From a virus (lineage: Duplodnaviria; Heunggongvirae; Uroviricota; Caudoviricetes), in IMG/VR virus record IMGVR_UViG_2541047897_000007, positions 1-36,207 of that record: DNA of 36,207 nt; one strand, given 5' to 3'. Below, piece by piece: positions 4,722-15,479 of this stretch; position 1 is the first letter of the stretch, and every line of letters begins with the position of its first letter. Both the position numbers and the translations under genes were made by a program. A model generated the notes under the pieces. It saw only the letters and a program-made list of their open reading frames with translations, was not told where the DNA came from and ran no database searches.

Positions 4722-4984
4722 CCATTCTGGACTACATCGCTACTCATCCGGGGTGTAGCGGCGGAGAGATCGCCGCAGCACTGAATACCCCAACCACAGC
4801 CATTAATGCTGAGTTACGCCGACTTTGGCGCGGCGGCTTAGTCATCAGAACAAACCGCAGCACAGGTGGTCGCGCTCGCAAAACAGGAGGCCAGGCTTCT
4901 TACCACGTAAACCCGATGCTGTTCGGGTGTAGTAATCCACTTACTCACATGTTTAACCAGCTACTGAAGGAAGCCAGAGCATGA
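4718..4984 (+). CDS. hypothetical protein, possibly winged-helix DNA-binding
   Basis: 88-aa ORF with AGGAG RBS; ILDYIATHPGCSGGEIAAALNTPTTAINAELRRLWRGGLV resembles a winged-helix recognition unit. Confidence 0.5.
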   Translation: MTILDYIATHPGCSGGEIAAALNTPTTAINAELRRLWRGGLVIRTNRSTGGRARKTGGQASYHVNPMLFGCSNPLTHMFNQLLKEARA

Positions 4985-5281
4985 GCACCATCAACCACCA
5001 GAAGCTACGCGAACTGGCATTTGCCCTGCAACGAATGGCAACGCCTCAAAAATTACTGGCATTTCGCGCAATGCTCTCGCCGTCTGCTGTGCTGGCACTG
5101 CTGGATCAGCTGGAGCACGCCAGAACCACTGCTCCAGCCATTCGCCTCACGCTCCATCATGAAATCGCTGATTTCTGCGCAACGCTGGGGGGCACCTGGC
5201 GAACCGGAAACGCCGGAAGCAATGCAGCAAGAGCTGCTGCAACGCATCGATAACGTTTTTGATTTTTTTCTGAACCAGTAA
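4981..5281 (+). CDS. hypothetical protein whose reading frame is broken at a G6 homopolymer
   Basis: ORF 4981..5253 and overlapping ORF 5021..5281 both look protein-like; they join into one product of about 100 aa if the G run at 5187..5192 were one G shorter. Confidence 0.4.
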
Positions 5282-6278: not shown

Positions 6279-9101
6279 ATGACGGCAGAGTACATCAGGG
6301 ACTGGCAACAACCGCGCCACGCAGTGGGGCGTGAAGGAACGGGGATCCCCGCTCCTGAATCCGCGCTTTCCTCCTGGCTGGATGCCTACCGGGTAGAGAA
6401 CGAGCGCCGCCAGGAAATGGCTGATGCGGCGTTCTCCGCCACGCCGCTGGGCAACCTGATTAATAAAAGCCTGGACGCACAGGAAAAACAGGACAAAACC
6501 ATCACACTGGCAGGAGACGCCAGAAAACAGGCACGCGGCGCAGTGGATGAAGCCATGACCTCGCTGCGCCTGCTGCCGTCCTATCTGCGCGATCCGCTTA
6601 TTCGCCACCTCTCCTTCCTGCGCAAAAAACAGGAAGCCGATCGCCGGAAAGGCAAAAAGAGCTGGCAGGCGGAACGCTATGCACGCGGAACCCTGCGCAA
6701 AATATTCGAACGTCTGGACCGCACCGATCACCGCTGGCTGACACCGGGTTATCGCTCCCTTGCCGGACGCGAACGCCTGGACGATTTGCTTTACCTGCCG
6801 CAGCTCAACAAACACCAGATACAGACGCTGGCCACCATGACGGCGGCGATGTTCAGCAGCACCTTCGAAAAACTCTGCGATGGCTTTGGCGCGACTGATG
6901 GCGAACTGACCATGGATGTAACGCTGAAGGCGTATCAGATGCTGGCCCGCATGGCGTTACACCTGCACGCCATGCCTCCACATTATGACGCACTGACAAC
7001 AGACAAAGACCGGAGGAACGAACCGGACACAGAGCTGCTGCCGGGCGCAATCCTTCGCCTGACCTGTGCGGAATGGTGGAAACGCAAACTGTGGCTGTTA
7101 CGTTGCGAGTGGAGAGAAGAACAACTCCGCGCCGCCTGTCTGGTTTCCAGAAAAACATCGCCCTATCTGAGCCAGGACGCGTTAAGCGAGTTTCGCGCAC
7201 AGCGCGAGAAAACACGCGATTTCCTGAAAAGTTTCATGCTGGAAAACGAAGACGGGTTCACGATTGATCTCGAGACAGTGTATTACGCGGGAGTAAGTAA
7301 CCCGGTTCACCGTAAGGCAGAAATGATGGCCACCATGAAGGGACTGGAACTTCTGGCCGAAGCCCGTGGCGACAGAGCGGTGTTTCTGACTGTCACCTGC
7401 CCGTCAAAATACCACGCAACAACGGAGAACGGTCATCCGAACCCCAAATGGAACGGGGCCACCATGCGCGACTCCAGCGATTACCTGGTTAACACGTTTT
7501 TTGCGGCGGTCCGCAAAAAACTGAACCGCGACGGCCTGCGCTGGTATGGCATCCGCACGGTGGAGCCTCACCATGACGGCACCGTGCACTGGCATATGAT
7601 GGTCTTTGCTCATCCGGAAGAAATCGACAGCATCGTGGCCATCACCCGCGATATTGCCATTCAGGAAGACCGCCACGAGCTGGGCAATGATATTACTCCG
7701 CGCTTTAAAGTGGAGTATGTCGACGGCTCAAAAGGCACACCAACCAGCTATATCGCGACCTACATCGGGAAAAACCTGGACAGCCGCGCCGTGGATGGCA
7801 TCGACCCGAAAACGGGCAAACCACGCGTTGACCACGAAACCGGAAAATCAATGGCCGAGAGCGTGGAGCGCGCCATCGGTTGGGCACGCCTTCACCGGGT
7901 CCGCCAGTTCCAGTTCTTTGGCATCCCCTCCCGTCAGGTGTGGCGTGAACTCCGCCGCCTTGCCAGCCAGATGGCACGCAACCCGGAAGGCCCGCAACGG
8001 CTGAAGGATGACGCAATGGATGCGGTACTCGCTGCCGCTGATGCCGGATGTTTTGCCACCTACATAGAGAAACAGGGCGGCGTACTTGTTCCACGCAAAG
8101 ACTACCTGATTCGCACCGCCTACGACCTCGCCGATGAGCTGAACGATTACGGCGAACAGAGTGTACAGATTTACGGGATCTGGTCACCACTCATCGGGGA
8201 ATCCTCCCGTGTGTGCACGCACCCGGATAACTGGAAGCTGGTAAGACGTAAACCGGAACAGGAAGGCAGCGCCCACGAAAATGGTTTTGACCTTCAGGGC
8301 GGCCCTGCCGCCCCTTGGACTCGTGGCAATAACTGTCCCCGTGTACAGGAAACGGACAACAACGGGACAGAACAGCCGGAAGAACGGCCAGCACCGTGGC
8401 CGCAGCTCCCTGACGGCGTTGAAGTGAACGAATGGATGCGCTCACTGAAACGGCACGAACGCCGGGCGCTGATGCGTTCGCTTCGTGACAAACAGGCAAA
8501 AAACAGCAGTGATGAAATGCAGAGCTGGACACAGAGCCGCAAACAGCAGCGGCCTTTGCCTGATAACCACGAATTACTCGCTAAAGAATGGCGGGAGTCT
8601 GCTGAATCTCTCGGCCTGCATATCGGTGAACAACAGATGCAGCACCTGTTACGGGGCGGCAGTCTGTACGTTGACGGCAGCATCATTGCACCGCAGGGAT
8701 TTGAAATTGTACGCAAACCGGATACCCGCCCGGACAGCCGAATCACGCAGCTCTGGCAGCGCCTGAGCCGTAATCACGGCGTAAGCAGCACGGAGATCCG
8801 CCATAACCCGGTCGCCAGCTATCTGGCGCAACTGGGGGCATCAGACCCTGAAGCCGCCGCACGCCTGGCATCCACACTTCAGCAGGACCAGAACACCATG
8901 AAAACACCCGTTACCGTGCTTTCTGACATGCTGCGCGCCATCCGCGACACAGAGCACGCACAGAGAATCAGTGAAACCACTGAACGCGCCCGCCGCAAAG
9001 CAGACCTGCTGCGGGGTGGCCTGACCATTGGAAACAAAAAACAGACAGAAACGGGATTCACAAATCCCGTAAATGAGCAAAAAACGCGCCGCGATATATG
9101 A
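6279..9101 (+). CDS. A: replication initiation endonuclease (P2 gpA-like, rolling-circle HUH nuclease)
   Basis: 940-aa ORF; HUH-type motif VHWHMMVFAH and tyrosine pair in SYIATYIGK; position after the early operon as in P2. Confidence 0.9.
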   Translation: MTAEYIRDWQQPRHAVGREGTGIPAPESALSSWLDAYRVENERRQEMADAAFSATPLGNLINKSLDAQEKQDKTITLAGDARKQARGAVDEAMTSLRLLPSYLRDPLIRHLSFLRKKQEADRRKGKKSWQAERYARGTLRKIFERLDRTDHRWLTPGYRSLAGRERLDDLLYLPQLNKHQIQTLATMTAAMFSSTFEKLCDGFGATDGELTMDVTLKAYQMLARMALHLHAMPPHYDALTTDKDRRNEPDTELLPGAILRLTCAEWWKRKLWLLRCEWREEQLRAACLVSRKTSPYLSQDALSEFRAQREKTRDFLKSFMLENEDGFTIDLETVYYAGVSNPVHRKAEMMATMKGLELLAEARGDRAVFLTVTCPSKYHATTENGHPNPKWNGATMRDSSDYLVNTFFAAVRKKLNRDGLRWYGIRTVEPHHDGTVHWHMMVFAHPEEIDSIVAITRDIAIQEDRHELGNDITPRFKVEYVDGSKGTPTSYIATYIGKNLDSRAVDGIDPKTGKPRVDHETGKSMAESVERAIGWARLHRVRQFQFFGIPSRQVWRELRRLASQMARNPEGPQRLKDDAMDAVLAAADAGCFATYIEKQGGVLVPRKDYLIRTAYDLADELNDYGEQSVQIYGIWSPLIGESSRVCTHPDNWKLVRRKPEQEGSAHENGFDLQGGPAAPWTRGNNCPRVQETDNNGTEQPEERPAPWPQLPDGVEVNEWMRSLKRHERRALMRSLRDKQAKNSSDEMQSWTQSRKQQRPLPDNHELLAKEWRESAESLGLHIGEQQMQHLLRGGSLYVDGSIIAPQGFEIVRKPDTRPDSRITQLWQRLSRNHGVSSTEIRHNPVASYLAQLGASDPEAAARLASTLQQDQNTMKTPVTVLSDMLRAIRDTEHAQRISETTERARRKADLLRGGLTIGNKKQTETGFTNPVNEQKTRRDI

Positions 9102-9146
9102 AGCGCGCATAAAACAGGCAAAAACGGGATTTCAGAATCCCGTAAA
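9049..9146. promoter_or_regulatory. two 25-bp dyad repeats, candidate centromere/operator for the downstream parMR-like operon
   Basis: aaacgggattcacaaatcccgtaaa (9049..9073) and aaacgggatttcagaatcccgtaaa (9122..9146), each an 8-bp-arm inverted repeat, spaced 73 bp; the first lies inside the 3' end of gene A. Confidence 0.4.
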
Positions 9147-9177
9147 CGATTAATTAATCAACATAAGGAAAAGCGAC

Positions 9178-10137
9178 ATGAAAATTTGTATCGATGACGG
9201 CTCCACCAACATCAAGCTGGCATGGACTGAGAACGGCGAACGCCGCAACGCCATCAGCCCAAACAGCTTCAAGTCGGAATGGTCTGCGCCGTTCGGTGGC
9301 ACGCAGCCCGCGAACTACATGCTTGATGGCGTGCGCTATGGTTTTGATCCGGTCAGCGATCGCTTTGTCCAGACGACCGACACGCAATACCAGTACAGCG
9401 ATGTGAATGTCATTGCCATTCATCACGCGCTGGTCAAATCAGGCATCACACCACAGGAAGTGGATGTGGTTGTCACCCTGCCACTGAGCGAATATTTCGA
9501 CACAAACGCACAGCCGGTCATGGCCAACATCAACCGCAAAAAAGCAAACGTCATGCGCCCGGTGGCGTACCAGAACGGAAAAGCATTCACTATCCGTAAC
9601 GTACGGGTTATGCCTGAATCCATTCCGGCTGGTTTTAAAGCACTGGCTGACATGAGTCCGTTTGAATCCCTGCTGATTGTGGATTTAGGCGGAACCACGC
9701 TGGATGTGGCAAAGGTTCAGGGACAACTGGCAGGTATCAGCCAGGTGTTTTGCGATCCACACGTAGGCGTTTCCCTGATGGCCGATGCCGTACTGTCGGT
9801 GATGGCCACTAACGGTATGCGTACCAGTCACCACATCGCCAATACCATTATCGAACATCGCCATGATGAAGCTTGGCTGCGCCAGCACATCCACAATGAC
9901 GCGCATTACGACAGCCTGATAGCGGTTATTCGTGAAAAGGAAGAAACACTGAAACAACGCGTGATCCGCGCGCTGGCGGGTTTTTCGGGTTACGGGCGGG
10001 TGATGGTTGTCGGTGGCGGGGCGGAGATTGTGGCACCCGCTATCCGCGAAGCCTGCGGAGTTAATGCGACTTTCATCGCGGACGGGGTGCCACAGTTTGC
10101 TCTGGTTAATGGGCTGTACGCAATGGACAAGGAGTAA
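9178..10137 (+). CDS. parM: ParM/StbA-like actin-type segregation ATPase
   Basis: 319-aa ORF; actin-fold motifs IDDGSTNIKL, IVDLGGTTLD and VVGGGAE; close match along its length to plasmid R1 ParM as recalled from memory. Confidence 0.85.
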   Translation: MKICIDDGSTNIKLAWTENGERRNAISPNSFKSEWSAPFGGTQPANYMLDGVRYGFDPVSDRFVQTTDTQYQYSDVNVIAIHHALVKSGITPQEVDVVVTLPLSEYFDTNAQPVMANINRKKANVMRPVAYQNGKAFTIRNVRVMPESIPAGFKALADMSPFESLLIVDLGGTTLDVAKVQGQLAGISQVFCDPHVGVSLMADAVLSVMATNGMRTSHHIANTIIEHRHDEAWLRQHIHNDAHYDSLIAVIREKEETLKQRVIRALAGFSGYGRVMVVGGGAEIVAPAIREACGVNATFIADGVPQFALVNGLYAMDKE

Positions 10138-10141
10138 ACCA

Positions 10142-10453
10142 ATGACGACACCAACCAGACGGATAAGTTTCTATCTGAAGCCCGCCGCCGTCAAGAACGA
10201 AGGCGAAGCATGCGCCTGGCTGGACAGCCTTACACCAGAAGCCCGCAAAAGTGGTCAACGTGTGGCTTTTCTGGCCGGACTGGCACTTATGAAAATTAAT
10301 CCGGCAGAGGCTTACCGACTGGCTGCATGGGCTGACGATGAAGCGTTATCCCTGACACAAACCAGGACAGAACGCCCCGTGTCACAGCCAGCACCAACCG
10401 CACAGATAACCAGTCAGATGGCCGGAAATATCCGGGCGTTATTTCCCGAATAA
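10142..10453 (+). CDS. parR: ParR-like centromere-binding adaptor (candidate)
   Basis: 103-aa product from the ATG at 10142 with AGGAG RBS; RRISFYLKP...AGLAL...LFPE resembles R1 ParR as recalled from memory; position directly after the parM-like gene. Confidence 0.55.
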   Translation: MTTPTRRISFYLKPAAVKNEGEACAWLDSLTPEARKSGQRVAFLAGLALMKINPAEAYRLAAWADDEALSLTQTRTERPVSQPAPTAQITSQMAGNIRALFPE

Positions 10454-10516
10454 CACAACATCAGGGCGCATCCGCCCTGATGACTTTAACCCGGGAACAT
10501 AAACAAGGGGGACACA

Positions 10517-10849
10517 ATGCAACACATTGACAGAGAAAAAGCGCAGCGACTGATTGAGCGGATGGAAGCGCTGGCGCAAGAAGAAAATGTCAACATCCAA
10601 AAAATAGCTGAATGTGGCCAGATAGTTCTTCGTCGTGAAAAAGACCTCAAACAACTGATGTCTGGCAAAACCAGCAAAACATGGGATTCAGGCGAGGAAA
10701 TGATTTATTGCAGCTTCTGCAATAAATCCCAGTACGAAGTCACAAAGGTGATTGCTGGACCGTCTGTTTACATCTGCAATGAGTGCGTGGATTTGTGCAA
10801 TGAAATTATCAGGAGAGAAGTGGCAGACAAAAAGGGAAAAAACACATGA
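10517..10849 (+). CDS. stand-alone ClpX-type C4 zinc-finger (ZBD) domain protein
   Basis: 110-aa ORF with strong RBS; C-terminal [38 protein letters not shown] is near-identical in pattern to the E. coli ClpX N-terminal zinc-binding domain, including the spacing of all four Cys; no AAA+ module follows. Confidence 0.75.
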
Positions 10850-11160
10850 ACAGAAAACAAAAACAAGAGTTGAAATACTTTTTACGTAAAGAAATTGCCA
10901 GGCTTGAAGATGCAGAATCACGATCATCAGAAATTCCGTTCGGAATGGATATCAACGACGCCCGTATGCTCCAGGCATACCGTATAGCTCAGGCTGCACT
11001 ACAGGCAAAACCGTCAGATGGACTGGTTAGAGCAGTACGTTTCTATGAACTGGTAAAGCGTGAGAATCCGCCAACCGAAACCGGAGCATGGAAAGACGCT
11101 GTTGACTGGGTGCTCAGAGAAGCTTGCCAGACTGTAAACATTGGTATCAAAGGAGAGTGA
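10846..11160 (+). CDS. hypothetical protein
   Basis: 104-aa ORF, start overlaps the upstream stop. Confidence 0.55.
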
Positions 11161-11162
11161 GA

Positions 11163-11654
11163 GTGCAGATTTCACCGGTTACTCTTCGTGTTGCGAAGGC
11201 ATTTATATCCAGACATCACCGACACAATAAACCCCCGGTGGGGCATAAATTCAGCATTGGTCTGAGAAATGATGCCGGAGAATTGATAGGTGTGGCGACA
11301 GCCGGTCGACCTGTTGCACGACATTTGGACGATGGATTAACGCTTGAAGTAAATCGCACATGTACCACAGGAGAACGCAACGCTAACAGCGCGCTTTATG
11401 GTGCTGTCTGGCGGGCAGCAAAAGCTATGGGTTATCAACGTTGTATTACGTACACCCGGGCAGATGAATCAGGAGCATCTCTTCGCGCAGCTGGTTTTGT
11501 TCGTGTGAAAGAGCTTCCTCCAAGAAAAAGCTGGGCGGAATCAAGCGTCGCCCTGCGGAGTAAACGCGATCCGGTCGGAAACGGTGGTGTTCCTCGTGTG
11601 CTCTGGGAAATCAGGAGAATGAGTACCACTGGCATTCGCATCAAAGGAGAGTGA
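11163..11654 (+). CDS. hypothetical protein (weak GNAT-like resemblance)
   Basis: GTG start at 11163 with AGGAG 6 nt upstream preferred over the overlapping ATG at 11124; 163 aa. Confidence 0.45.
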   Translation: MQISPVTLRVAKAFISRHHRHNKPPVGHKFSIGLRNDAGELIGVATAGRPVARHLDDGLTLEVNRTCTTGERNANSALYGAVWRAAKAMGYQRCITYTRADESGASLRAAGFVRVKELPPRKSWAESSVALRSKRDPVGNGGVPRVLWEIRRMSTTGIRIKGE

Positions 11655-11655
11655 T

Positions 11656-11919
11656 ATGGCAACTTTAACAAAAAAAGAACGGGCATGGTTGAATGAATTA
11701 CAGGACGTTCTTGATCGCTGCCCATCACCGAAAAAAATTGGTTTTTACACCATTGGCGATAAAAGCATTTACCTGTATGACCTGCGCCGCATGGATGAAA
11801 TCATGGAGGCTCTTGATAATCGTTCGTCAATGGATTGGTGTGTTGCTGTTCATGATATGAATGCAGGGTTTGATGAAAAGATTTTGTTCCCCTCATCAGT
11901 TGAAAGCACAGCAGGATAA
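11656..11919 (+). CDS. hypothetical protein
   Basis: 87-aa ORF starting 2 nt after the upstream stop, preceded by the same aaaggagagtga junction seen at 11149..11160. Confidence 0.55.
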   Translation: MATLTKKERAWLNELQDVLDRCPSPKKIGFYTIGDKSIYLYDLRRMDEIMEALDNRSSMDWCVAVHDMNAGFDEKILFPSSVESTAG

Positions 11920-11929
11920 GGACTAACAC

Positions 11930-12190
11930 ATGACAACTTTCACCGACAAAGAACTGATTAAAGAAATCAAAGAGCGCATAGGCAGCCTGGACGTTCGAGA
12001 CAATATTGAGCGCCGTGCTTATGAAATTGCACTGGCATCACTGGAAGCAGAGCCAGTAGCATGGATGCATGTAAATAACGGCATCGGAATACCAGCAATA
12101 ACAAGGAGTAAAGAGGTTGCAGAGAGTTGGTTATCAAAAGGCTGGTATGTCCAACCCTTGCATCTAGCCCAGCCTGCATCAAAGCTATAG
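11930..12190 (+). CDS. hypothetical protein
   Basis: 86-aa ORF with RBS aggact; last gene of the island. Confidence 0.55.
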   Translation: MTTFTDKELIKEIKERIGSLDVRDNIERRAYEIALASLEAEPVAWMHVNNGIGIPAITRSKEVAESWLSKGWYVQPLHLAQPASKL

Positions 12191-12200
12191 AAATGAGCCA

Positions 12201-12229
12201 AAACGCCCTCTTCCAGGGCGTTTATTTTA
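12201..12229 (+). terminator. rho-independent terminator ending the early/accessory operon
   Basis: aaacgccct-cttcc-agggcgttt hairpin followed by a T-rich tract. Confidence 0.55.
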
Positions 12230-12681
12230 ATGCACAATAGTGCACAAATTTGCACAATTTTTTTGAACGACTTTTTGCCCTTCCGGCCCCCGTGGCGGCT
12301 GGATCCGTCAAGGATCCGTGCGTGCACAAAAAAACGCGTTTTTTCTGCGCGCAGGTGACGGGGGAACAGCCCGCGTTTCAGGGGGTAAATAGCGTTCCCT
12401 TAACGATGTCGCAGCGACACGACAGAATGGCCGTATTTCTCACGCTGAGCGTGAAAAATACGTGAGGGATTCTGATTTGATGGGGTGAAAGGTAAGGCCG
12501 TCAAAATCGCACTGAGGCGGCGAGAACATGCAGTCAACGCGGTGGGATTGCGTAAGAGTCTGACCGTCGATGGTGGCGATAAACTGGAAGGCGTCGTGAA
12601 ATTATCTGACTGATACAGGAGCTGGAGAGTCGGGGCATAAATTTTTTATGCCCCGGCGAAGCAGCAGACAAGCGAAGCGCG

Positions 12682-13728
12682 TCAGGATGTGGGCTGGATG
12701 TCTAACAGTGCGTAAGGGTTAAAGCGGATCACCTCTTCGCCAAGCCAGTCATTGATGTGCTTCATGGCCTCCATGACGGGCATCAGCTCGTTAATTGCGT
12801 AAACCCGCGCGGCCTTCTCCACATCACCAAACGCACTTTTTTCACCCGGCATCGCCCCCATCAGTTGCGGCGGAACGCGGTGCGCAGCCAGCACATCATC
12901 ACGGGATGCCGCCTTAACATTCATGAACTCATCCTTTGCGGTGATCTGCTGGAACGGCAAAATTTGCACCCCCTCTTTGCCCCCGTTGGGCGCATGAATG
13001 AGCACGTTTTTAAACGCACCACCACCACGCGCACCCTGTAGCGTTTCTTTCAGGGAGTCCATGCTTTCGCGGTTTACCTGCGCTGCACCGATGTAGATGA
13101 TGCACCCGGCGTGGGATCCGTTGTCGTAGTACAGTTTTCTGAACATGTCCGCCGAATGAGACAGGCTGGCCGAGAGTAATGCGCCGAGATATTCCGGCAT
13201 GCCGTAGATTTCCTGATTAATATCCGGATTCATCAGGTGACACACTTTGCCTGGGCGAAACTGAAACGCATCCTTGCCATCCTGCACATACCACCATGAT
13301 TCAAGATCGCTTCCGCGTCGCATGTATTTCGCCAGTGCGTGCCGTAATTTAAGCGGTTCGCCGAGCATATTGCTCCGAAGCTCAAGGAATGCGTTACCGA
13401 ACACAAACCAGTCCAGCGCCAGCGCCGAGAAATCCTGCCGGGAAAGCAGCGGGTGCGGGATGTAGCAACCGAGTAATACATTGCGCTTAAAGTAAAGCGC
13501 AGACTGATGCCAGGACGTTTGCCGGGCAGCTCTTGCCAGACCGTACCAGTCCACCGGGGTTTCATACCACCGCCCGTTATCAGCACAGTACATATTGTCC
13601 AGCAGATCATGCCCGGTCAGGCGATAAGGACCATCAAATGTGAATGCACTGAGCGATGATTCTTTCCTGAGCGCATCAGCGAGATCAATGCGTGAACTCA
13701 TGCGCACTTTTTTATTTTTTCTGCTCAT
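12682..13728 (-). CDS. Q: portal protein (P2 gpQ-like)
   Basis: 348-aa ORF; size and position match P2 Q, paired with the terminase ATPase gene directly upstream. Confidence 0.85.
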   Translation of the reverse strand: MSRKNKKVRMSSRIDLADALRKESSLSAFTFDGPYRLTGHDLLDNMYCADNGRWYETPVDWYGLARAARQTSWHQSALYFKRNVLLGCYIPHPLLSRQDFSALALDWFVFGNAFLELRSNMLGEPLKLRHALAKYMRRGSDLESWWYVQDGKDAFQFRPGKVCHLMNPDINQEIYGMPEYLGALLSASLSHSADMFRKLYYDNGSHAGCIIYIGAAQVNRESMDSLKETLQGARGGGAFKNVLIHAPNGGKEGVQILPFQQITAKDEFMNVKAASRDDVLAAHRVPPQLMGAMPGEKSAFGDVEKAARVYAINELMPVMEAMKHINDWLGEEVIRFNPYALLDIQPTS

Positions 13729-15479
13729 CAGAACTCCATAACCGTGAAACGCTCGTTTTCTCCTTCGCCGCCAATCGGTTCGTTAATGACAGCAAGCATG
13801 GTTGCCCACGCAAGGTCGCCGTGGCTGATCCCCCTCGCGCGGTCCGTTTCGTAAGTGATAAAGCCGCCCGGTGTTTTCACCTTACGCACGGCGTTAAAGG
13901 CCGCGACCAGCTCGCGTTCGGCGCGATCGTATTCCCACCGCCCGGCACGCATTATTTGCAGCATTTTCAGTACCAGCGACCGTTTTGATGACAGCGTGAA
14001 GGTGTACGGAATAGCAGCAGGGAAAAAACGTTTCACTATCTGATAAACAGCCTCCCCGTTCCCGCCCGTCACATCAATGCCGATGTGTTCCACGTTGTAG
14101 CGATACGTGAACTCTTCAATGACTCTGGCCTGTTCTTCAAACTCCAGCCCCTGAACGCGTCGCGTCTCCACCGTTCGAAAACGGCCACCAGGAACAGCCG
14201 GAGGAACCACCACGGACACAGCGCCGCTGTCGCCGTTGCCACTGCTGCCGTTTGCGTCATACCCAATCCATACCGGACGATTCCCCATCGGGCGGGGAGC
14301 AAAAGGTTTCCAGTCTTTCCAGTCGTCGTATCCGTCAACACCGCAGCCAATCAGGATATTCAGGTTAAATGCCGATTCCCCTTCGCGAACAAACTCACAC
14401 ATATAGAGATTGAGGAACTCGTCTTCGGTATTTTCATCACGAATTTCGTCGATATCGGTGTGTTTCCAGCCGTGATTAACCACATCTTCCAGCGTGACAA
14501 TTTGCCGCCACGTCCGGTCAGGGCAGATAAGCCCGTTATGCAGCGTTTTCCAGTCCACAGAAAAACGCTGGCGTTTATGCGAGGCCTTTTTCTCGTTCCA
14601 GCGGTCGCCGTTCCAGTAGGCGTATGCCTCGTGCGTTTCGGTGGATGGCGTGGAGAAGTAGGTGCGCCGCAGTCCGCTGAGGGTTGCCATAGCGCCAGCC
14701 ACCTTGCGCAGTTCAGCAAAGCGACTGACCCAGAAAAATTCATCAAAATAAAAATTGCCCGTATAGGACTGTGCCGACGCAGCAGAAGTGCCGAGAAAAT
14801 GCAGCTCTGCGCCGTTGGAGAGGATGATTTTATCGCCCCCTTTCAGCTCCACATCAACTTCAGCTGCGGCCTTCTGAATAATGCTTTTAAACTGGAACGC
14901 CTGACGACGCGACGCAGACAAAAAAATCTGGTTACGCTGGTAAGGTTGCGCCACATCGTCACGCAGCGCCATCAGCAGTGCTTCCTGTGCAAAATACCAG
15001 GTCGCCCCAATCTGTCGGGATTTCAGGATCATCCTGTTACGTATCCCGGCTTCCCTGCAAAGGGTCAGGGAGTCAAACCAGCCCCGCTGATGCCACTCCA
15101 GCCTGCTGATGATTTTTTCCCGCAGTGCGGCAATCTGTTCCGGCGTGAAATGATTTTTGAGTTTTTTCGCCCGGCCTTTCTTTCCTGCGGCCATCACATC
15201 CGGCTGGCCATCATGTAGCTTTTTAAGCTGCCGGGTCAGCAGGTCTATTTCCTTAAAGTCACCGCCTGTTTTATTCTGTTTTTCAGTAAGCTGGATGAGG
15301 CGCGCATCGATGGACTGCGTGACACGCTGCACGGGTGGCGTTTCATCCCACTGGTCACGTTTTTTCCACGCATAAATCGTGTTCGGGTTTATTCCCATCA
15401 GACGTGATATTTCTGCGGGCGGATAACCCTGCCAGTAAAGTTGCCGCGCACGCTGGCGCACAAAAGCGTCCTGAATCAT
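13728..15479 (-). CDS. P: terminase large (ATPase) subunit (P2 gpP-like)
   Basis: 583-aa ORF upstream of Q on the same strand and divergent from the capsid operon; size matches P2 P. Confidence 0.85.
   Translation of the reverse strand: MIQDAFVRQRARQLYWQGYPPAEISRLMGINPNTIYAWKKRDQWDETPPVQRVTQSIDARLIQLTEKQNKTGGDFKEIDLLTRQLKKLHDGQPDVMAAGKKGRAKKLKNHFTPEQIAALREKIISRLEWHQRGWFDSLTLCREAGIRNRMILKSRQIGATWYFAQEALLMALRDDVAQPYQRNQIFLSASRRQAFQFKSIIQKAAAEVDVELKGGDKIILSNGAELHFLGTSAASAQSYTGNFYFDEFFWVSRFAELRKVAGAMATLSGLRRTYFSTPSTETHEAYAYWNGDRWNEKKASHKRQRFSVDWKTLHNGLICPDRTWRQIVTLEDVVNHGWKHTDIDEIRDENTEDEFLNLYMCEFVREGESAFNLNILIGCGVDGYDDWKDWKPFAPRPMGNRPVWIGYDANGSSGNGDSGAVSVVVPPAVPGGRFRTVETRRVQGLEFEEQARVIEEFTYRYNVEHIGIDVTGGNGEAVYQIVKRFFPAAIPYTFTLSSKRSLVLKMLQIMRAGRWEYDRAERELVAAFNAVRKVKTPGGFITYETDRARGISHGDLAWATMLAVINEPIGGEGENERFTVMEF

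Follow-up and report, generated by a model that had tools for sequence, protein, structure and literature searches.

Gene content of the region between gpA and the portal gene

The stretch of DNA considered here, which we call the window, comprises positions 1-36,207 (36,207 nucleotides, nt) of the IMG/VR virus record IMGVR_UViG_2541047897_000007, and our subject is the block of seven genes at 9102-12230, which has the replication gene A (gpA) on one side and, on the other, cos and the portal gene Q. The window is a P88-like (genus Xuanwuvirus) prophage of the P2 family: positions 9102-12230 are 97% identical to Escherichia phages PhiR44_2 and P88, and 9102-12680, with the cos region included, are 99.8% identical to a prophage of Escherichia coli C325 that is integrated next to dmsA. 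The phage is of the P88-like type and not P2 itself. An initial annotation, made from the sequence alone, had described seven co-directional, tightly coupled genes closed by a terminator and had placed them at the tin/old (gpA-gpQ) hotspot of P2. The first description was confirmed by the open reading frames (ORFs), by RefSeq annotation of the C325 prophage (99.8% identical), whose gene calls agree with all seven plus-strand ORFs, and by folding of the terminator; the placement was borne out by the gpA and portal flanks and by the gene order A / cargo / cos / Q / P, as in P2. Gaps and overlaps between successive genes, from parM through the 86-amino-acid (aa) gene, are +4, +63, -4, +2, +1 and +10 nt. 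The GC content is 0.43-0.50 in the cargo vs 0.55-0.60 in gpA. The labels ParM-like, ParR-like and ClpX zinc-finger, given in the same annotation, were likewise upheld by Pfam profile matches and, for ParM and the ClpX finger, by sequence matches in the Protein Data Bank (PDB). The features are as follows.

9178-10137, plus strand: parM, actin-like segregation ATPase, 319 aa; Pfam StbA_N 5e-81, ParM_N 2e-68
10142-10453, plus strand: parR-type adaptor, 103 aa; Pfam Plasmid_stab_B 4.8e-25, PHROG partition protein 4.6e-57
10517-10849, plus strand: ClpX zinc-finger protein, 110 aa; Pfam zf-C4_ClpX 2.7e-18, 66 bits (cut-off 27)
10846-11160, plus strand: 104-aa modular protein; phrog_660 / phrog_26213; mosaic junction with lambdoid DNA inside the gene at ~11015
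11163-11654, plus strand: XF1762-family GNAT-fold protein, 163 aa; NCBIfam XF1762_fam (NF045478), 203.3 bits vs cut-off 50
11656-11919, plus strand: 87-aa protein; phrog_1714
11930-12190, plus strand: 86-aa modular protein; phrog_5117 / 660 / 60
9035-9149, no strand assigned: candidate parC, two 42-nt direct repeats (9035-9076 and 9108-9149), 73 bp apart
10459-10482, plus strand: 10-bp GC-rich hairpin with no plus-strand U-tract; -22.9 kcal/mol, z -4.3
12201-12229, plus strand: intrinsic terminator, 9-bp stem at 12201-12223 and then a T-run; -13.4 kcal/mol, z -3.2
12231-12258, no strand assigned: start of the conserved right flank on the cos side, TGCACAATAGTGCACAAATTTGCACAAT, with three GCACAA repeats
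6279-9101: gpA, left flank; Pfam Phage_GPA 1.7e-130
8343-9101, plus strand: 3' part of gpA, about the last 250 codons, which diverges from a parMR-less relative (nucleotide coordinate derived from the residue number)
12682-13728, minus strand: portal gene, right flank
13728-15479, minus strand: terminase gene, right flank

A lineage-fixed parMR pair with a candidate centromere

The ParM protein aligned over its full length with ParM of plasmid R1 (PDB 1MWK; E 7e-92, 46% identity), and the nucleotide-binding segments DDGST, PES, DLGGTT and GGGAE are identical in the two proteins. Of 87 related loci, 86 have an intact parM, whose ratio of nonsynonymous to synonymous substitution rates (dN/dS) is 0.057. 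The parR ORF begins 4 nt past the parM stop codon, and its dN/dS is 0.18 in the N-terminal 60 aa, 0.76 in the linker and 0.10 in the C-terminal tail, a pattern of constraint in keeping with a DNA-binding head joined to a ParM-binding tail by a flexible linker. We found parMR DNA in 1307 of 5426 complete E. coli genomes (about 24%), at 1453 chromosomal places vs 2 plasmid places. Isolated phages that bear parMR are P88-like only, plus the phage-plasmid D6 at 48%. In a survey of the locus that covered 80 IMG/VR loci with near-identical ParM, plus annotated hits, and in which 56 loci were complete, parMR was present in every sibling locus. The pair is therefore fixed in the lineage of P88-like phages and under purifying selection, and is not variable cargo; the block had initially been taken for a single seven-gene island, a view that does not hold, since the swappable cargo consists of the five downstream genes only.

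Just upstream of parM, each of the two 42-nt repeats contains a perfect 20-bp palindrome, ACGGGATT-N4-AATCCCGT (at 9051-9070 and 9124-9143), and two such perfect palindromes were observed where chance would give 0.13. Between the repeats lie the gpA stop codon and an AT-rich core. The repeats recur, imperfectly conserved, in 85 related loci. On these grounds we regard the repeats as a candidate centromere to which ParR would bind. The arrangement resembles ParMRC of plasmid R1 in several respects: ParM is 46% identical and retains the motifs, a ParR-family gene follows 4 nt downstream, and repeats lie just upstream of parM. The centromere of R1 is laid out as ten 11-bp iterons, whereas the candidate described here consists of two palindrome-bearing 42-nt repeats that overlap the 3' end of gpA. 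The host replicons differ as well, R1 being a low-copy plasmid and the carrier here an integrating prophage, as the chromosomal and plasmid counts given above indicate. Covariation between ParR variants and palindrome variants was also sought in the related loci; the N-terminal ParR segment RRISFYLKP is nearly invariant, which left no variation to compare.

The unit to which parMR belongs appears to extend into gpA. The gpA protein of a near-identical relative without parMR (locus L095; 822 aa) is near-identical to that of the window up to about residue 688, after which the similarity decays and is gone by about residue 738. Because the similarity to this relative ends there, the parMR-linked module is placed as starting inside gpA, near 8343, and the gpA tail (residues ~689-940), with the first palindrome repeat inside it, seems to travel with parMR. 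At the parMR position of this relative, between gpA and the gene for the ClpX finger, two small ORFs of 143 aa and 55 aa are found (L095:4364-4959), for which no Pfam matches are on record.

Replication of P2-family phages yields monomeric circles. ParR bound to the 42-nt repeats would capture ParM filaments, which in turn would move or separate the circular copies of phage DNA. Because the prophages are almost always integrated, ParMR would act after infection or induction and not in long-term plasmid carriage; by analogy with characterized systems, moving or separating the circular phage DNA copies at that stage is most plausibly its role. The best functional analogy is AlpAC/alpS of the Corynebacterium glutamicum prophage CGP3, which is reported to serve efficient viral DNA replication and transport and not plasmid inheritance (PMC4446434, PMC5539076). 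Both systems pair an actin-like protein with a DNA-binding adaptor and come from an integrated prophage, but AlpAC belongs to another actin-like family and another phage type. An R1-type ParMRC system under strong selection in about a quarter of E. coli genomes may position replicating phage circles instead of partitioning a plasmid.

A different role was suggested by Rousset et al. (2022; PMC9122126), namely that ParMR allows the prophage to persist as a low-copy plasmid, in the lifestyle of a phage-plasmid. In its favor, the pair is truly homologous to a plasmid partition system, and one complete P88-like genome of 34.5 kb has been deposited as a free circular "plasmid" (NZ_CP148288.1, in PLSDB). 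This circle, however, also has an integrase gene and could be an excised, replicating form; an integrase gene is likewise carried by the window and its relatives, the C325 prophage is integrated next to dmsA, and the 5426 complete genomes hold 1453 chromosomal places against 2 plasmid places. We therefore regard a plasmid lifestyle as unlikely and favor action on replicating circles. The free circle (locus L091, from an E. coli isolate) also has parMR, a Com-family regulator adjoining a DNA methyltransferase, and a Hok/Gef toxin gene.

A narrow variable slot between parR and the cos side

The segment that is swapped among sibling loci runs from the parR stop codon (10453) to 12230, with a sharp boundary on either side. 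The right junction is fixed: in every complete sibling locus, regardless of cargo, the shared sequence begins again with TGCACAATAGTG (window 12231) or a sequence close to it. The 56 complete loci comprise at least 29 architectures, with 537-1938 nt of cargo between parR and the cos-side anchor. The variability expected of the island at the outset thus stood for 10454-12230 and failed for parMR, which is fixed in the lineage. Distinct types of cargo carry their own terminators up to the common right junction, and the terminator at 12201-12229 is part of the cargo cassette of the window. On the left, the hairpin at 10459-10482 marks the start of the ClpX-type cargo cassette, and the 63-bp segment 10454-10516 that contains it occurs chiefly in sibling loci with ClpX-zinc-finger cargo or related 104/135-aa cargo. 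The GCACAA repeats in the right flank could be a cos-side protein-binding site or a recombination anchor.

The full cargo set of the window is rare, being found in 2 surveyed IMG/VR loci and strain C325, and in 49 of the 5426 complete genomes. The genes for the ClpX zinc finger, the 104-aa protein, the XF1762 protein, the 87-aa protein and the 86-aa protein occur in many other combinations among the sibling loci. Other siblings hold IetA and IetS in this slot (4e-89 and 3e-40 with PADLOC models), an AbiL-like pair (AAA_15 plus OLD-type TOPRIM), an RmrA-like HTH-peptidase, PDC-M04A/DUF3800, DUF4760 or a Fic/Doc pair. Because the sibling cargo includes defence genes, the site is a real defence hotspot. 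The defence and toxin-antitoxin cargo of the siblings lies mostly opposite to the early-operon strand, with independent expression signals; the exceptions are IetAS and the RmrA-like gene. Sibling loci that hold the AbiL-like pair, IetAS, the RmrA-like protein and PDC-M04A/DUF3800 are listed here by locus number.

L014:5931-7127, L038:5391-5924: sibling defence cargo
L075:5610-8935: sibling defence cargo
L050:5458-6600: sibling defence cargo
L044:5511-6314: sibling defence cargo

Rousset et al. (2022; PMC9122126) defined the gpA-gpQ hotspot as a reservoir of defence systems and reported a putative plasmid partitioning system at gpA-gpQ in about a quarter of P2-like phages. Their supplementary table contains the present gene arrangement, with six of the seven RefSeq accessions being those of C325 and the ParR accession differing. 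The hotspot, the partition genes and the gene arrangement are thus already catalogued. The locus described here shares with the tin/old hotspot of P2 its position between gene A and the portal gene, adjoining cos, and its highly variable cargo. It differs in that the swappable slot is narrower than the full gpA-gpQ interval, reaching from the parR stop codon to the TGCACAA-repeat junction, and holds no recognizable defence gene.

A stand-alone ClpX N-domain protein

The first gene of the cargo encodes a 110-aa protein in which a lineage-specific helical N-terminal region of ~55 aa is fused to a ClpX-type C4 zinc-binding domain. Of the cargo genes in the survey it is the most frequent (21 of the 76 loci with ParR called), and homologues that are 46-53% identical occupy the gpA-portal interval of P2-like phages of E. 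coli and Salmonella that lack parMR. Residues 52-104 match the N-domain of E. coli ClpX (PDB 1OVX) at 1.8e-20. In comparison with ClpX of E. coli K-12, 34 of 53 residues are identical, and the third codon positions match at 19 of 53 (36%). The four cysteine zinc ligands and the hydrophobic-patch residues F16 and I46 are kept. Lambda O, SspB and RssB are described as docking on this hydrophobic patch (PMC7804408). Because third codon positions match at 19 of 53 only, the likeness to ClpX is old and has been maintained by selection, and a recent capture of the finger from the host, which we considered, was rejected on the same figure. An AAA+ module is absent: the full-length ClpX model TIGR00382 scored 50 bits vs a cut-off of 370.75 and covered the N-domain only. 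When the first 56 aa were searched exhaustively with HMMER, 11 matches were obtained among 1.84 billion representative proteins, nearly all of them similar short proteins, with one weak match in a 1212-aa protein, and no informative new domain context emerged.

In comparison with the solved ClpX N-domain (PDB 1OVX, 2DS5-8), the phage protein thus has the same C4 zinc ligands and hydrophobic-patch residues at 34/53 identity, but it stands alone, without the AAA+ unfoldase, and has a helical N-terminal extension of its own. Such a protein could act as a decoy or a poison subunit, either by competing for the adaptors and substrates that dock on the ClpX N-domain or by pairing with that domain, and either action would shift ClpXP proteolysis and its choice of substrates during phage development. 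That P2-family phages carry, co-directional with and downstream of gpA, a mimic of the ClpX N-domain serving as a decoy for adaptors and substrates that depend on the N-domain (SspB, RssB, lambda-O-like clients), or as a poison partner, and hence as a selective modulator of ClpXP, is a proposal that we put forward tentatively. Literature searches turned up no description or functional study of phage-encoded ClpX zinc-finger inhibitors or of a comparable ClpXP modulator.

A cassette from the lambdoid early-gene pool

The right-hand part of the cargo has a different relationship. Megablast matches to lambdoid phages begin at query positions 1912-1921, that is, at window 11013-11022 within the gene for the 104-aa protein, and lambdoid/P22-like matches of 95-97% identity run on through the genes for the 163-, 87- and 86-aa proteins (identity stretch 11015-12057). 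In these phages the same genes are located in the early-left region by recombination genes and xis, as in Kapi1, or in the nin region, and in one prophage the XF1762 gene is followed by the same 87-aa gene. From this DNA identity, the cassette at ~11015-12230 is read as recombined in from the pool of lambdoid/P22-like early accessory genes. It shares with those early (ea / nin) genes the 95-97% DNA identity over 11015-12057 and the same XF1762 gene, and differs in having been transplanted into a P2-family early operon downstream of gpA-parMR.

The four small proteins (104, 163, 87 and 86 aa) had been called ORFans; that designation has to be dropped, since each of them matches PHROG families at 1e-27 to 1e-51, and the 163-aa and 87-aa proteins have more than 5000 and 132 homologue clusters, respectively. 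The 104-aa and 86-aa proteins have a short N-terminal module in common (E 3e-4). The 87-aa protein was modelled with a predicted local distance difference test (pLDDT) score of 92, and fold searches with this model gave no structural analogue. We also considered whether the 104-aa and 86-aa proteins are Ead/Ea22 proteins, and rejected this, with no Pfam Ead_Ea22 match and a BLASTP E of 4.7 against a true Ead_Ea22 sibling protein.

The XF1762-family protein and its relation to Mom

The 163-aa protein belongs to a highly conserved family, and RefSeq likewise names the protein at the same position of the C325 prophage XF1762. An AlphaFold2 model (pLDDT 84.7) has a GNAT fold, and a PDB sequence search gave no meaningful match. 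We infer from the modelled fold that the XF1762 protein is an acyltransferase.

A more specific function would be Mom-type hypermodification of adenine in phage DNA as a means of evading restriction, and the cargo would then be an anti-restriction module. Several observations point in this direction: the best PDB match of the model in Foldseek is Mom of phage Mu (8BV8; E 4.6e-8, TM 0.72), the protein matches PHROG 1384, labelled Mom-like, at 9.5e-42, and a low-probability hhalign alignment sets the invariant R65 opposite Mom R111 and H19 opposite H58. However, ordinary GNAT acetyltransferases score almost equal to Mom in the same structural search, the Pfam Mom profile (PF25680) gave 22.2 bits, below its gathering cut-off of 27.1, over positions 3-126 of 202, and direct comparison with Mu Mom gave a BLASTP E of 0.27 and an hhalign probability of 3%. 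The residues essential in Mom are R111, S124, D149 and R151, and deletion of an HTH-like insertion (residues about 175-209) abolishes momylation (PMC13219725). In the low-probability alignment S76 lies two positions from S124, and Mom D149 and R151 lie outside it. The insertion is absent from the 163-aa protein, whose model shows no such element and whose profile matches end before it. A Pfam scan of the island also found no Com-type regulator. The protein thus shares with Mu Mom (PDB 8BV8) a GNAT fold, for which Mom is the closest solved structure, and the status of a phage accessory gene; it differs in lacking the essential insertion (PMC13219725) and a Com regulator, in scoring below the Pfam threshold and in being a member of XF1762. 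We rejected its identification as a true Mom on the sub-threshold Pfam score, the insignificant direct comparisons and the missing insertion. A Mom-type anti-restriction role is accordingly doubtful, and the broader assignment as an acyltransferase is preferred.

Expression and interpretation of the region

A simple consensus scan of the plus strand over 8800-12750 found no sigma-70-like promoter, this being a crude search that weak or ParR-regulated promoters would escape, and no U-tract terminator was found between gpA and 12201. Because the seven genes are co-directional with gpA, closely packed and followed by a single terminator, with no plus-strand promoter found, we read them as an extension of the early lytic (replication) operon and consider their expression as part of it most likely.

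On balance, we favor the view that three layers, added to the early operon in the gpA-portal hotspot, make up the region. The first layer would be a type II (ParMRC-like) segregation cassette made up of ParM, ParR and the candidate centromere; the second, a near-copy of the N-terminal zinc-binding domain of ClpX without the AAA+ motor; and the third, a lambdoid-derived cassette with two modular proteins, a Mom-related GNAT acyltransferase of the XF1762 family and an 87-aa protein. In the early lytic operon these layers would provide DNA positioning, ClpXP interference and acyl transfer, respectively.

Several points weigh against this composite. The candidate parC has two sites, where R1 has ten iterons; conservation of the palindromes is imperfect, and some variants retain pairing via G-U alone, which would be better suited to an RNA hairpin than to a protein-binding site. 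The ribbon-helix-helix fold of ParR is an assumption, because a PDB sequence search matched no solved structure. For the decoy no beneficiary is apparent, as this analysis documents no known ClpXP substrate among P2-family proteins. The limits of the promoter scan noted above bear on the operon assignment. Finally, position and orientation are compatible with a defence role, because sibling defence systems share the slot and some of them, such as IetAS, are on the plus strand.

It had been proposed at the outset that the block, in which no obvious known defence gene was recognized, serves an uncharacterized function such as defence, superinfection exclusion or prophage maintenance. The absence of an obvious defence gene was corroborated by a scan with PADLOC-DB 2.0, in which none of the seven proteins matched a family at E <= 0.01. 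A prophage-expressed system for anti-phage defence or superinfection exclusion, comparable to tin and old of P2 and made up of the whole block or of the five cargo genes, would agree with its location in a hotspot known as a reservoir of defence systems (PMC9122126), with the IetAS, AbiL-like, RmrA-like, PDC-M04A/DUF3800, DUF4760 and Fic/Doc cargo of its siblings and with a cargo GC content below that of the phage core, but we consider it improbable, because the genes are not co-inherited as a unit and occur elsewhere in many other combinations, the XF1762 gene and its neighbors belong to early lytic operons of lambdoid phages, and the simple consensus scan gave no promoter specific to them; most sibling defence and toxin-antitoxin cargo lies on the opposite strand with independent expression signals. 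The composite early-operon extension therefore remains our preferred interpretation.

Other features of the window

Just inside the integrase gene, on the minus strand, a low-GC block (0.35-0.43) at 1008-2455 encodes a DUF2511 protein (115 aa), a 216-aa protein without a Pfam family and a 134-aa helix-turn-helix (HTH) protein, and this block may include a second cargo slot. Minor defence hotspots of P2 that adjoin the integrase gene (integrase-att site; integrase-gpA) have been described in a 2026 preprint. In the early region, a 90-aa ORF at 4981-5253 has a weak, sub-threshold match to Ead_Ea22 (E 7.6e-4), which suggests that lambdoid-type modular genes may be present upstream of gpA too.

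Significance

As a locus, the region is ordinary: it is another fill of a published hotspot, composed of catalogued families, and is near-identical in dozens of sequenced E. coli. Literature searches on XF1762, Xuanwuvirus, P88 with ParM and phage-encoded ClpX zinc-finger inhibitors yielded no functional study of parMR or of the ClpX-finger and XF1762 proteins. The survey fixes the exact points of recombination at both ends of the cargo slot, a help in searching this lineage for defence and counter-defence genes. Two components of the locus are common and unexplained, namely a selectively maintained ParMR system in integrated prophages and a copy of the ClpX docking domain beside the replication gene of P2-family phages. 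An intact, plasmid-type ParMR motor resides in integrated prophages of about 24% of complete E. coli genomes. If the proposal for the ClpX-finger protein is true, a copy of a ClpX domain that redirects host ClpXP would give phages a new means of tuning the protein turnover of their hosts.

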